A stretch of 62,002 bases of DNA, from positions 1 to 62,002 of the forward strand of contig CAYMUX010000004.1 in NCBI GenBank assembly GCA_964393845.1, read 5' to 3'. Shown piece by piece: positions 46,277 to 49,464 of the stretch; position 1 is the first letter of the stretch, and each line of letters starts with the position of its first letter. A program made the position numbers and the translations under genes. Source of the DNA: an uncultured Nitrospiraceae bacterium (GTDB lineage Bacteria; Nitrospirota; Thermodesulfovibrionia; UBA6902). A model generated the notes under the pieces. The model did not search any database, was not told the DNA's origin, and saw only the letters and a program-made list of their open reading frames with translations.

Positions 46277-46339
46277 TTAACACGGATGCACAACGGCCCT
46301 TCCGACTATCCTCGGCGCAACATATTTTATTTTCTTCAC
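46277..46339 (-). CDS. unannotated 20-aa peptide (M)KKIKYVAPRIVGRAVVHPC, copy B
   Basis: GGGAGGTGG SD lies 6 nt before the GTG. An in-frame ATG at 46360 would add MNRGRWN but has no SD. It is a paralog of 49402..49464 and ends at TAA. Confidence 0.6.
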   Translation of the reverse strand: MKKIKYVAPRIVGRAVVHPC

Positions 46340-46376
46340 ATTCCACCTCCCTCTGTTCATTATTGAAAAGCCTGAT

Positions 46377-47240
46377 TCATTTTTTCTTTTCGGTATCTTC
46401 TTTCATCTTGTGTTTCATTTCTTCCTTAATATTTTTTTCAGGCGTCTGCTCAGGCTGCTGGCCCTTCGGCCCTCTCTCAAAATGCCTTACTACTTTTATA
46501 GTTATGCCCTGTGTATTCTCCCCCGTTTTAACAGCAACGGCAGCAGGCCTTTCTTCACCGTAACCACCCATTACCGAGCCTGCAACAGGCGGGCCTCCTC
46601 CGTATATATCCCTGACTCTCAGATAATAATTACCGCCCTTGTCCACTGCGATGAAGTACTTTCCATCCGGCCCTGTCTTGTACGACGTAAACGGCGGAAT
46701 GCCGGTCATCGTCTCTGTAATATAGGCAAATACTATGGCCCCTCCGACAGGGTCGCCGCTCATGTCGACGATTGTGCCGGATATCCCGCTGACCCCTTCG
46801 GCGATTTTCCTCTTGAACGGAACGGCCTCTGAAACAACTCCAACACTCTGGCTTTTATCTTTTTCAATTATATAGGCAACAGCAATTCCGTCCTTGTCAC
46901 GTCTTATAAAAAAGTAATCACCGTCCTGAGGGGGACCGATCTTTTCACCTGACATCCTTTTTATGGCGCCCATGTAATACTTACCCACAGGCAGCATAAT
47001 ACGGAACTTGCCCTCTTCATCGAGGTCTCCTATCTGGTCCGGGGTCCTCACGAACTTGTCAGGGTCCGGCGCCGGCCCTGTCGCAGCATCAAAGAACACC
47101 ACCATCCCGCCTGACATAGGACCTCCGTCCTTGATCATAATTTGCCCTGAGAGCCAGCCGATAGCGACTTCCTGCGCAGCAATATGTGATGCAAAGACAA
47201 ACATGATGAACAAAAATACAACAATGCCCTTTCTCACCAT
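46377..47240 (-). CDS. secreted CarboxypepD_reg-like protein with Lys/Glu-rich tail
   Basis: 287 aa with a signal peptide. LSGQIMIKDGGPMSGGMVVFF... and ISGTIVDMSGDPVGGAIVFAY... mark the domain starts. The tail is EKNIKEEMKHKMKEDTEKKK. It is a paralog of 49550..50134. Confidence 0.7.
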   Translation of the reverse strand: MVRKGIVVFLFIMFVFASHIAAQEVAIGWLSGQIMIKDGGPMSGGMVVFFDAATGPAPDPDKFVRTPDQIGDLDEEGKFRIMLPVGKYYMGAIKRMSGEKIGPPQDGDYFFIRRDKDGIAVAYIIEKDKSQSVGVVSEAVPFKRKIAEGVSGISGTIVDMSGDPVGGAIVFAYITETMTGIPPFTSYKTGPDGKYFIAVDKGGNYYLRVRDIYGGGPPVAGSVMGGYGEERPAAVAVKTGENTQGITIKVVRHFERGPKGQQPEQTPEKNIKEEMKHKMKEDTEKKK

Positions 47241-47241
47241 T

Positions 47242-49326
47242 TCATTCCCCCTTTCTCACCCCTGTAGTTTCAGCAGGAGACGTTAAATAAGGTTTATATA
47301 ATACGTTACCTAATGTTCTGTCGGTCTTTCCGTCATATATCGTCCCAGGGATGTCCGTTTCCCTGATGCTGCCCCACCAGTTGTCCTTGAGTGAAATATC
47401 ATAACCCTGTCTTTCACCAAGCCTGTAATTATATGAAACATTATACGTTATATTATTGTGTGTGACAACAGGCTGATACTGGTTAAGTATATCCTTCCTG
47501 TCAAATGTTTCAGAGAAGTCCACAATGTTCTGGTTTGAAGGCACAAGAAAAATTCCGACATCATTGTCCCTGATATTGTTGTAAGCGATCTCAACAGGTC
47601 CTTCAAGCCTTGTATGTCTGATCCCATAGGCATTATCGTGAATATCGTTATGCTCGATACGGAGCTCCGTCCTTCCAAACCGTATCCCTTCATGATTTCG
47701 GGCAAATACCGAATCCGTTATAAGCGCTTTTGAAAAATGCACCTGGACTCCTGTAAAGGCATATTCGAAGATGCAATATTTAACAACGCTTTCATCTCCC
47801 GACACAAAGAACAATAGATACGCCCAGTCCATTTTATCAGGCCTGTCTTCACCTGAAGTAAATCTGATCATATTACCGGGAGCGCCTTCCGCGAGTAACC
47901 TTCCGCTGACTGTAATCTTGCTGTCACCAACTCCATCACGGTCCCTGTCGATTTTCCTGAACATAACAACCGTGCCGGGGGTGACTGTCAATGTGGCATT
48001 GCGCGCAACATGTACGGTGCCTTTTATAATGATGTAACCGCTCCAAACAGTATCTTTGTTTATAACTTTATCACCATCGTAAAAATGATTGCGAATCAGT
48101 GATAGGGGGTCAGGGGTTGGGGATTGGGAATTAGCGTCTAGTGCCTCTTGCCTCTTGCCTGCTTCCGCCATGACTCTACTGACCAGGATATCCACATTAT
48201 CAATGGAATCTTTTTCCATCATAACTGAATGATTTGCATTCTCCTCATAGAGTCCATAATTTTCGCCTTTTGCCGGGGCCTCTCCAATAAGGTCCCTTGC
48301 GAGTATATAATAGCTGCCCTTCCCTGCCGTATTAATTGTGTAAAAACCTTTATTGTCGGTCCTTGCCAGATATTCCGGCATGGTCCTGACAAAAAGCATT
48401 TGAAACATTTGTTCGGGCTTACCCTTATATGCCATGACATAAAGGTCCTGCATCGGGTTTCCCTTCATGTCGGTCACACGCCCTTTAATACTCAGGACAT
48501 CTGATATCTTTTCAATTTTATTCTCTCTGAACCGCATACTGTCTTCTCCGGCTTTTTTTACCATTATAGCCGGATACACTTTTTCATCAAGAAATGCCTT
48601 CAGGTCGTCCTTGGGATAACATGGTATCTCTATCTGTTTCACTCCTGAAGCCGTAACAGCAACAGGATTCCCGTCATAGTAGCAGAAAAGGTCCCCCTTT
48701 CTCAGTGGCCGCAATCCGCTGAAGTCCATTCGCTTACGGGCCACGATAACATATTCACCCGGTTCAGGCGACATAGTGAAAGCCCCTTCATTATTCGTTG
48801 TACTTGTAAGGAACCCCATTCCCCTGAAATTCATATCTGTCACGGGATAGATTGATATCTGGGCGCCATTAACAGGGGCGCCTTTAAATGTAATTCTGCC
48901 GGACAATCCAGAGGCAGATGATTCGTTAAATATCTCACTCGTCCTGGGGAGGGCCATAAACGGGATCCATAGATCAGTATCCGTTATTTCTACCGGATTC
49001 GCGCCGTGGTAGGAAAAATATTTCGTACCGGCAAAATCCCCGGTTGAAACCAGATAATACCTTCCGGGAGGCAATTCAATTTTGTAGAAGCCAATCTTGT
49101 CTCCCTTTTCAGAAACAAACGAGGGCCGTCCATTCATATAGTCCTGGAACGTGCCATATGCAAACACTTGAGAATCCCCTACAGGGCCTTTTTCAGAAAG
49201 GACAATGCCTTCTATAACAGCGGATGATGATAAATCAGGGAAGGAAAACCCGGCGAAGAGACAGTAGAAAAATAAAATAAACCACTTTGATTTATATCCA
49301 TATCTAATCACATTCAATAATACCAT
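47242..49326 (-). CDS. secreted fusion: three CarboxypepD_reg-like domains + one NosD-like beta-helix module
   Basis: 694 aa. The domain starts are IEGIVLSEKGPVGDSQVFAY, LSGRITFKGAPVNGAQISIY and IKGRVTDMKGNPMQDLYVMAY. Then come DTVWSGYIIIKGTVHVARNATLTVTPGTVVMF, beta-helix coils and DNWWG. Confidence 0.8.
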   Translation of the reverse strand: MVLLNVIRYGYKSKWFILFFYCLFAGFSFPDLSSSAVIEGIVLSEKGPVGDSQVFAYGTFQDYMNGRPSFVSEKGDKIGFYKIELPPGRYYLVSTGDFAGTKYFSYHGANPVEITDTDLWIPFMALPRTSEIFNESSASGLSGRITFKGAPVNGAQISIYPVTDMNFRGMGFLTSTTNNEGAFTMSPEPGEYVIVARKRMDFSGLRPLRKGDLFCYYDGNPVAVTASGVKQIEIPCYPKDDLKAFLDEKVYPAIMVKKAGEDSMRFRENKIEKISDVLSIKGRVTDMKGNPMQDLYVMAYKGKPEQMFQMLFVRTMPEYLARTDNKGFYTINTAGKGSYYILARDLIGEAPAKGENYGLYEENANHSVMMEKDSIDNVDILVSRVMAEAGKRQEALDANSQSPTPDPLSLIRNHFYDGDKVINKDTVWSGYIIIKGTVHVARNATLTVTPGTVVMFRKIDRDRDGVGDSKITVSGRLLAEGAPGNMIRFTSGEDRPDKMDWAYLLFFVSGDESVVKYCIFEYAFTGVQVHFSKALITDSVFARNHEGIRFGRTELRIEHNDIHDNAYGIRHTRLEGPVEIAYNNIRDNDVGIFLVPSNQNIVDFSETFDRKDILNQYQPVVTHNNITYNVSYNYRLGERQGYDISLKDNWWGSIRETDIPGTIYDGKTDRTLGNVLYKPYLTSPAETTGVRKGE

Positions 49327-49334
49327 ATAATATT

Positions 49335-49384
49335 AATAAAGGAGGATATCCATTCAATAAATGAACAAGATATCCTCCTTTATT
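49335..49384 (-). terminator. 16-bp perfect hairpin after the 20-codon gene (copy A); attenuator/terminator-like
   Basis: aataaaggaggatatc pairs with gatatcctcctttatt around an 18-nt loop. The hairpin ends 8 nt before the ATG of 47242..49326. The flank is A/U-rich but has no clean U tract. Confidence 0.5.
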
Positions 49385-49401
49385 CGCACGACCACATGTA
49401 C

Positions 49402-49464
49402 TCAGCAAGGATGTACAACCGCTTGTCCGACAATCCTCGGAGGTACATATTTAATCTTCTTCAT
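49402..49464 (-). CDS. unannotated 20-aa peptide MKKIKYVPPRIVGQAVVHPC, copy A
   Basis: AAAGGAGGTG SD lies 6 nt before the ATG. A stop codon sits two codons upstream, so there is at most one extra Met. It ends at TGA and is a paralog of 46277..46339. Confidence 0.6.
   Translation of the reverse strand: MKKIKYVPPRIVGQAVVHPC

Follow-up and report, generated by a model that had tools for sequence, protein, structure and literature searches.

Several described systems pair a very short peptide precursor with a PqqD-type chaperone and a radical SAM/SPASM enzyme. In PqqA, whose genes can be present in more than one copy, the Glu and Tyr residues of an E-x-x-x-Y motif become pyrroloquinoline quinone (PQQ), and in MftA, which ends in a C-terminal Val-Tyr, the enzyme MftC performs an oxidative decarboxylation and forms a cross-link. 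GeoRSP is catalogued as a three-gene radical SAM system, uncharacterised and belonging to metal-respiring bacteria, for which no substrate was found in the family libraries or papers searched. Here we describe two 20-codon open reading frames (ORFs), peptide genes A and B, in a 62,002-nucleotide stretch of DNA from an uncultured Nitrospiraceae bacterium (contig CAYMUX010000004.1 of assembly GCA_964393845.1; this whole stretch is hereafter the window), which also holds a GeoRSP cassette.

The two genes are real, conserved and physically linked to GeoRSP. Comparative sequence analysis further suggests, with a probability that we put at about 0.68, that they are translated precursor genes of GeoRSP, and that the product is tied to the extracellular electron-transfer machinery. 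The three GeoRSP enzyme families were already known from NCBIfam, whilst the peptide family and the wider gene cluster around it appear to be new, being undescribed in anything searchable.

A conserved family of very short genes

Both genes lie on the minus strand (Table 1), and their products share the joint form M/VKKIKYV(P/A)PRIVG(Q/R)AVVHPC. A preliminary description of this DNA had proposed two 20-codon minus-strand ORFs, each with a GGAGGTG-type ribosome-binding site 6 nucleotides (nt) ahead of its start and a strong hairpin past its end, and had counted eight synonymous against two replacement codons between them; coordinates, translations, sites, folds and codon counts all agreed on re-examination. 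Compared codon by codon, the copies have 9 identical codons, 8 sense codons that differ only synonymously and two replacements (P/A at position 8 and Q/R at position 14), with start (ATG/GTG) and stop (TGA/TAA) codons also unlike. In a pairwise DNA alignment the similarity of the two loci starts at GGAGGTG and stops at the stop codon, nucleotide identity being 76% within the ORF against approximately 30% in the ungapped flanks. The encoded peptides are 90% identical, compared with 36% for the paralogous CarboxypepD_reg proteins (194 and 287 amino acids) and approximately 31% for the paralogous beta-helix proteins (694 and 849 amino acids) encoded on either side of them, indicating that purifying selection is much stronger on the peptide than on the flanking paralogues. 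Judged from these identities, and from the occurrence of the same ORF in more than 200 independent loci (see below), the resemblance of A and B is far beyond chance.

The distance from the GGAGG core to the start codon is 6 nt at both copies. Copy A contains a further in-frame ATG at 49465..49467 (which would read MMKKIKY...), but as this lies only 3 nt past GGAGG, the ATG at 49464 is the likelier start. Direct folding identified stable structures downstream of both genes (-32.2 kcal/mol, z = -6.3 for copy A; -21.1 kcal/mol, z = -2.35 for copy B, where the stem is followed by AUUUUUUAU), although a consensus terminator scan restricted to loops of 3-8 nt missed both of these minus-strand hairpins. 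A six-frame motif scan revealed no third copy of the peptide in the window.

To define the family, one genome per GTDB species was scanned with the pattern Y-x-x-P-x-h-h-G-x-x-x-h-H-P-C-(stop or Trp), in which h denotes any codon whose middle letter is T; by a rough estimate fewer than 10 matches are expected by chance. At least 120 loci were returned, and all of the matches listed are ORFs encoding 17-21 amino acids. In 120 of the 120 listed loci the ORF has its own start codon, is preceded by a ribosome-binding site and encodes a Lys-rich N-terminus, although the pattern required none of these. The distinct genome sequences all end in a real stop (130/130), none ending in TGG although the pattern allowed it, and no frame-breaking substitution was found in relatives. 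Among the matches listed the hosts are almost all Desulfuromonadales/Geobacterales and Nitrospirota, including the isolates Pelotalea chapellei DSM 13688 and Geobacter sp. AOG1; the few other labels (Acidithiobacillus, Chitinophagales, Kiloniellaceae and Polyangia metagenome-assembled genomes (MAGs)) may be binning errors. Many MAGs carry between 2 and 6 peptide copies on separate contigs.

Because a pattern that fixes the C-terminus is subject to ascertainment bias there, a second scan, of metagenome contigs, used the N-terminus only (ATG-Lys-Lys-(0-3 codons)-Y-x-x-P-[KRQN...]-[VIM]-V-G). Among the matches listed, 86 of 94 in-frame matches are ORFs of 18-20 amino acids that end in G-x-x-x-V-H-P-C-stop, the other 8 and a further 26 out-of-frame matches being unrelated to the family. 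Across the 82 distinct sequences obtained in this way G, H, P, C and the stop never vary, 81 carry V, and the distances within G-x-x-x-V-H-P-C-stop do not change. Each of the five residues is encoded by its full set of synonymous codons, e.g. GGT 35, GGG 19, GGC 18 and GGA 10 for Gly, and GTT 33, GTG 19, GTC 15 and GTA 14 for Val. This supports the earlier proposal that selection acts upon the peptide rather than the RNA, and, as far as sequence analysis can settle such a matter, establishes the ORFs as protein-coding. The consensus of the family reads M-K-K-(x0-3)-Y-x-[KRP]-P-[RK]-[VI]-V-G-[ST]-[AS]-x-V-H-P-C-stop, of which MKKYMKPKVVGSSNVHPC is a further member, and within which an N-terminal K-Y-x-x-P-[RK]-[IV]-V-G and a C-terminal G-x-x-x-V-H-P-C are separately conserved. 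No leader-like peptide with a different C-terminus was found in all of the loci examined.

These data bear directly upon two alternative explanations. That the ORFs are chance open frames, or part of a non-coding RNA or DNA element, has their small size alone in its favour; the frame, start, stop and length of 17-21 amino acids kept in more than 200 loci, the full synonymous codon use at third positions and the absence of TGG at a stop position where it was allowed together refute this idea, to which we attach next to no credence. The second possibility, that the genes encode regulatory leader peptides (attenuators) acting upon the terminator hairpin and hence upon the downstream beta-helix genes, would account for a short ORF with a strong ribosome-binding site and a hairpin after it (with a U-run in copy B), and stable folds are indeed found downstream throughout the family (median minimum free energy -27.3 kcal/mol, median z -4.2, 81% with z < -2; n=124 distinct 70-nt regions). 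However, attenuator peptides conserve only their regulatory codons, whereas here the whole amino-acid sequence is kept across phyla whilst codons vary freely. Moreover, the peptide occurs in unrelated positions (after cytochromes, within the GeoRSP cassette and before convergent genes), and the hairpin lies wholly past the stop codon, with no antiterminator pairing apparent in the folds, although none was searched for. Conservation of the whole peptide, variation in context and the downstream position of the hairpin thus led us to reject an attenuator as very improbable.

Two observations concern unusual members or matches. A sub-family with two Cys residues (…G-[SFA]-[VA]-C-[VM]-H-P-C) is represented at loci L013 (three copies), L017, L046, L089 and L105; all but the last belong to the MAG JAJYJK01 (Nitrospirae bin159), which contains at least six two-Cys copies, three of them in tandem within 2.5 kb. 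In two metagenome contigs (L228 and L230), the N-terminal motif MKKAKYTVPQIVG also opens an unrelated 92-amino-acid ORF (…TVAEVCRHLKIGESTYYQWRAEY…) that by eye resembles a transposase helix-turn-helix, so that searches using the leader only need a check of the C-terminus.

Linkage to the GeoRSP cassette

The GeoRSP cassette of the window comprises genes for a PqqD-family chaperone, a radical SAM/SPASM enzyme and a SPASM-only protein, on the same strand as the peptide genes and 11-15 kb downstream of them. All three types of GeoRSP protein are represented in the window, two of them by proteins above the curated cutoffs and the SPASM-only one by a best match below its cutoff, and these three enzymes are all that the NCBIfam models cover: the beta-helix, CarboxypepD_reg, ResB-like, PhnD-like, TPR, YedE and multihaem cytochrome proteins described below lie outside TIGR04302, TIGR04303 and TIGR04304. 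The radical SAM enzyme has a CxxxCxxC motif and a SPASM domain, and its closest solved structures are PqqE (6c8v, E = 2e-26), SuiB and SkfB, by analogy with which it is of the peptide-modifying type. Between Nitrospirota and Geobacteraceae this protein is 65-81% identical, a value unusually high across phyla, indicative of lateral transfer of the cluster, very strong constraint or both, and suggesting an important, conserved role. The peptide family and the GeoRSP radical SAM enzyme share one narrow taxonomic range.

Gene-order maps of the 120 listed genome loci were constructed by tblastn/blastp comparison with the window proteins and de novo clustering. The cassette itself contains the peptide gene in approximately 15 Desulfuromonadales loci, in the order beta-helix, PhnD-like, TPR, YedE, PqqD, radical SAM, peptide, SPASM, with the peptide in intergenic gaps of roughly 35-200 nt. 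The commonest context is a different one, in which the peptide is directly downstream of, and co-directional with, a multihaem cytochrome (31/120 loci); the nearest upstream same-strand gene encodes a giant fn3 protein in 10/120. In a third context, that of the window, the peptide has a CarboxypepD_reg gene on one side and a NosD-like beta-helix gene on the other, and a beta-helix gene is the next one downstream in 12/120 loci. Within 4 kb of the peptide, 95 of the 120 loci have one or more genes of the conserved cluster.

A small ORF at the matching position is also present in related loci. Three syntenic contigs were examined and each contains one in its intergenic gap, L001 with two peptide copies (MKKKYVPPRIVGKAVVHPC and VKKIKYVVPRIVGKAVVHPC), L002 with MKKIKYVPPKIVGRAAVHPC and L004 with MRKKKYVAPRIVGVATVHPC. 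In a Geobacteraceae MAG, MKKSKYTRPKIVGSAAVHPC is encoded immediately upstream of the beta-helix gene and 7.5 kb upstream of the cassette, in the same operon-like array. In this MAG and in Geotalea toluenoxydans a single uninterrupted stretch comprises the beta-helix, CarboxypepD_reg, OpuAC-like and ResB-like genes together with PqqD-radical SAM-SPASM (in Geotalea the ResB-like gene adjoins the PqqD gene), indicating that the genes flanking the peptides and GeoRSP belong to one and the same conserved cluster. In Geotalea toluenoxydans the gap upstream of the beta-helix gene, in which the peptide is found in other genomes, contains a sequence (L005, 4650..4725) that resembles, when read by eye, a tRNA gene.

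Table 1. Features of the window around the peptide genes and the GeoRSP cassette, in order of decreasing position.
Feature	Positions	Strand	Basis
Giant multihaem c-type cytochrome, >1414 amino acids, 28 CXXCH	57642..61886	minus	CxxxxCH/CxxCH domains; ORF begins near window end
fn3/SBBP/DUF2341 surface protein, 2476 amino acids	50236..57666	minus	Domain search
Secreted CarboxypepD_reg protein, 194 amino acids, upstream of copy A	49550..50134	minus	Pfam
Shine-Dalgarno sequence GGAGGTG, copy A	49469..49475	minus	Sequence read and alignment
Peptide gene A, MKKIKYVPPRIVGQAVVHPC-stop, 20 codons	49402..49464	minus	Translation and family membership
Hairpin 3' of copy A, inner stem of larger fold	49335..49384	minus	Direct folding
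CarboxypepD_reg + NosD-like beta-helix protein, 694 amino acids, directly downstream of copy A	47242..49326	minus	Pfam
Secreted CarboxypepD_reg protein, 287 amino acids, upstream of copy B	46377..47240	minus	Pfam
Shine-Dalgarno sequence GGAGGTG, copy B	46344..46350	minus	Sequence read and alignment
Peptide gene B, GTG start, (V->M)KKIKYVAPRIVGRAVVHPC-stop, 20 codons	46277..46339	minus	Translation and family membership
Terminator-like hairpin 3' of copy B, 10-base-pair GC-rich stem then U-run	46201..46246	minus	Direct folding
NosD-like parallel beta-helix protein, 849 amino acids, directly downstream of copy B	43589..46138	minus	Pfam Beta_helix 110 bits, NosD 79 bits
CarboxypepD_reg protein, 232 amino acids	42894..43592	minus	Pfam; conserved synteny
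OpuAC-like substrate-binding-fold protein, 198 amino acids	42285..42881	minus	Pfam; conserved synteny
ResB-like membrane protein, 306 amino acids	41344..42264	minus	Pfam ResB 31 bits, C-terminal stretch only; conserved synteny
PhnD-like periplasmic binding protein, 304 amino acids	40309..41223	minus	Pfam Phosphonate-bd 145 bits; NCBIfam; with cassette in three lineages
TPR protein, 174 amino acids	39172..39696	minus	Conserved synteny
YedE-family putative selenium transporter, 368 amino acids	38073..39179	minus	TIGR04112 378 bits, cutoff 200
ArsP_1-family permease, 635 amino acids	36151..38058	minus	Synteny
Cupin, 108 amino acids	35749..36075	minus	Synteny
GeoRSP PqqD-family peptide chaperone, 102 amino acids	35424..35732	minus	TIGR04302 147.8 bits, cutoff 100
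GeoRSP radical SAM/SPASM enzyme, 336 amino acids	34430..35440	minus	TIGR04303 576.3 bits, cutoff 400
Putative GeoRSP SPASM-only protein, 279 amino acids	33553..34392	minus	Best match TIGR04304 181.6 bits, below cutoff 300; Pfam SPASM; syntenic position

Within the window, the peptides sit in tandem duplicate modules that each consist of a secreted CarboxypepD_reg protein, the peptide and a NosD-like parallel beta-helix protein, these being the 194- and 694-amino-acid proteins in module A and the 287- and 849-amino-acid proteins in module B. The 287-amino-acid protein has 119 homologues, of which those with source names all derive from Nitrospirota MAGs; for the 849-amino-acid beta-helix protein no sequence relative with a solved structure was found. 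Two further features were noted elsewhere in the window. At 22145..26091 a second PhnD-like periplasmic binding protein (336 amino acids) is encoded directly upstream of a 961-amino-acid PAS/hybrid histidine kinase-receiver protein, and the two possibly make up a sensor pair. A 101-amino-acid ORF (32035..32340) shortly downstream of the GeoRSP region has an N-terminal hydrophobic segment and one CXXCH (CDSCH), and gave no Pfam or NCBIfam match.

The peptides as candidate GeoRSP precursors

The preliminary description had suggested a precursor resembling those of peptides made ribosomally and then modified after translation (RiPPs), or a small metal- or haem-interacting factor, and the first of these gains support from the presence of the GeoRSP cassette in the window and from the embedding of the peptide gene in the Desulfuromonadales cassette, whilst the modification itself is presumed. 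A PqqD-family chaperone (in NCBIfam terms a 'peptide chaperone') implies a peptide substrate. That this is the family described here is suggested because the peptide gene is found in the cassette in one order and in the same conserved cluster in two other lineages, because the structural relatives of the radical SAM enzyme modify peptides, and because of the shared narrow taxonomic range and a motif spacing like that of YxxPxL (see below). On this basis the Lys-rich N-terminal half, K-Y-x-x-P-[RK]-[IV]-V-G, would be the recognition sequence bound by the PqqD-family chaperone, and the radical SAM/SPASM enzyme, aided by the SPASM-only protein, would modify the invariant C-terminal G-x-x-x-V-H-P-C. 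As Cys is obligatorily the last residue, chemistry at the terminal Cys and/or the free carboxylate appears probable. Candidate reactions might include a cross-link of Cys to Val or His, an oxidative decarboxylation like that of MftC, or insertion of S or Se, although the nature of the modification is guesswork.

Several observations weigh against assignment of the peptides to GeoRSP. A distance of 11-15 kb separates the window peptides from the cassette, and the majority of other copies do not adjoin GeoRSP; no peptide was found within 10 kb of GeoRSP in Geotalea toluenoxydans (L005) or in the Nitrospiraceae chromosome CP070788 (L010). The in-cassette arrangement is seen only in Desulfuromonadales and could partly reflect lineage-specific synteny, and a precursor of 18 amino acids leaves very little room for separate leader and core. 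Finally, the SPASM-only protein of the window, at 181.6 bits, falls under the TIGR04304 cutoff of 300. Regarding the first of these points, CP070788 does carry a peptide gene, at a position away from its cassette (L030), which indicates that precursors can be encoded in trans. Regarding the last, the Desulfuromonadales counterpart (L066, 5120..6061) is likewise syntenic and scores only 108.6 bits, so the TIGR04304 model seems too narrow (Geobacter-centred), and annotation pipelines will miss the SPASM-only component in both groups.

In a different explanation, the peptide would be a true small protein that functions without modification, as a subunit, chaperone or donor of His/Cys ligands for the extracellular cytochrome/beta-helix machinery, and GeoRSP would act on another substrate and share no more than the neighbourhood. 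The commonest neighbours of the peptide are cytochromes and beta-helix proteins rather than GeoRSP, peptide genes and cytochrome or beta-helix modules occur in a ratio of about one to one, the duplicated module of the window being an example, and His and Cys, both invariant here, typically serve as ligands of metals or haem. However, the peptide has no signal peptide, whereas the proposed partner proteins are all secreted. An unmodified role would also sit poorly with the position of the gene between radical SAM and SPASM in approximately 15 loci, and with the need of PqqD for a peptide substrate when the cassettes examined offered no other candidate, and would leave the leader-like Y-x-x-P-x-V motif without explanation. 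We consequently regard this possibility as unlikely, albeit as the foremost competitor to a role as GeoRSP precursor.

Most copies directly follow a giant multihaem cytochrome or precede secreted beta-helix genes, so that the matured product most likely serves the extracellular electron-transfer machinery; it might be a small cofactor or subunit that is redox-active or binds metal or haem. The genes adjacent to the cassette offer a further hint, concerning sulfur or selenium. A YedE gene is kept beside GeoRSP in all three lineages, and 'putative selenate ABC transporter substrate-binding protein' is the third-best NCBIfam match of the PhnD-like binding protein encoded beside GeoRSP. In Desulfuromonadales the SPASM gene is followed by one for an EF2568-type cysteine desulfurase (L066 6078..7223 and equivalents; TIGR01977 436 bits, cutoff 377), whose next-best match is the selenocysteine lyase SclA. 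One proposal casts YedE as a selenium transporter restricted to organisms that utilise selenium (PMC5322559), and EF2568 is a class-V aminotransferase adjoining selD in Enterococcus faecalis (PMC2432076). With YedE and the EF2568-type desulfurase beside GeoRSP, the peptide might conceivably receive sulfur or selenium, but this arrangement could equally represent lineage synteny. A bolder and more doubtful proposal, which we offer tentatively, is that maturation by GeoRSP would turn the peptide, through its invariant C-terminal Val-His-Pro-Cys, into a novel prosthetic group or redox cofactor for the extracellular multihaem-cytochrome/beta-helix complexes of Geobacter-like and Nitrospirota bacteria; here the chemistry might be a His-Cys or Val-Cys cross-link, with S/Se possibly supplied by YedE and, in Desulfuromonadales, the EF2568-type enzyme.

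The preliminary description had also held the family to be undescribed, and this stands. Pfam and NCBIfam models gave no match to the peptides even at E<=10, and exact look-up of ten 20-amino-acid variants, two of them from RefSeq isolates, found none in a collection of 15 billion proteins. A full-text search found no papers on GeoRSP or the peptide, although literature coverage was partial and an earlier description elsewhere is possible; a paper on mycofactocin mentions Geobacter only in connection with mycofactocin. The absence of ten variants of a widespread family from the protein collection is an example of annotation passing over genes of 17-21 codons. A credible GeoRSP substrate makes the system directly testable, by co-expression with PqqD, the radical SAM enzyme and the SPASM protein followed by mass measurement, and the matured peptide could be an overlooked part of extracellular electron transfer, of relevance to metal cycling, bioremediation and bioelectrochemistry.

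Comparison with known peptide-modifying systems

Amongst systems in which a radical SAM/SPASM enzyme acts on a Cys-containing peptide are those of sactipeptides and ranthipeptides (SkfB, PapB and SCIFF maturases), SkfB being one of the nearest structures to the GeoRSP enzyme. However, most members of the present family have one Cys, at the C-terminus, in a sequence that is invariant rather than hypervariable, and the GeoRSP radical SAM enzyme scores far under the cutoffs of the sactipeptide/ranthipeptide maturase models. A resemblance of another kind, in recognition only, is to the leaders of lasso peptides. YxxPxL is conserved in actinobacterial lasso-peptide leaders, and has been discussed in a review in connection with leader binding to the PqqD-like recognition element (PMC6784204), which in lasso pathways is part of the B1 protein; Y-x-x-P-x-(V/I) of the present peptides has the same spacing. 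In contrast to lasso peptides the core is far too short for a lasso, and with no lasso cyclase or leader protease (B2) among the annotated neighbours, a lasso precursor was rejected.

Closer parallels are provided by PqqA and MftA. Like PqqA, the candidate precursor is very short (approximately 20 amino acids) and highly conserved, and in both systems a PqqD chaperone is paired with a radical SAM/SPASM enzyme; the product of PqqA is a cofactor and not an antibiotic. Unlike PqqA, it has no Glu-x-x-x-Tyr pair: the core is without Glu, the sole Tyr is N-terminal, and the C-terminus is an invariant V-H-P-C. Neither PqqB nor PqqC was seen, the peptides have no NCBIfam PqqA match, and the radical SAM enzyme attains only 142 bits on the PqqE model (cutoff 381); the lack of E-x-x-x-Y and this low score led to rejection of identity with PqqA. 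With MftA the family shares a small precursor size, the placing of the (here predicted) modified residues last before the stop, and the partnership of a PqqD-like chaperone with a radical SAM/SPASM enzyme. The C-terminus is, however, invariably His-Pro-Cys and not GVY, no MftD, MftE or MftF was seen, and the MftC model (cutoff 265) gives the enzyme 158 bits, so that, with GVY missing and the score under the cutoff, identity with MftA was likewise rejected. Nevertheless, in its fixed length, C-terminal Cys, near-invariant core and conserved enzyme the system resembles, by analogy, PqqA and MftA, and differs from fast-evolving bacteriocins; several precursor copies per genome and a hairpin after each gene would also be consistent with the precursor of a cofactor.

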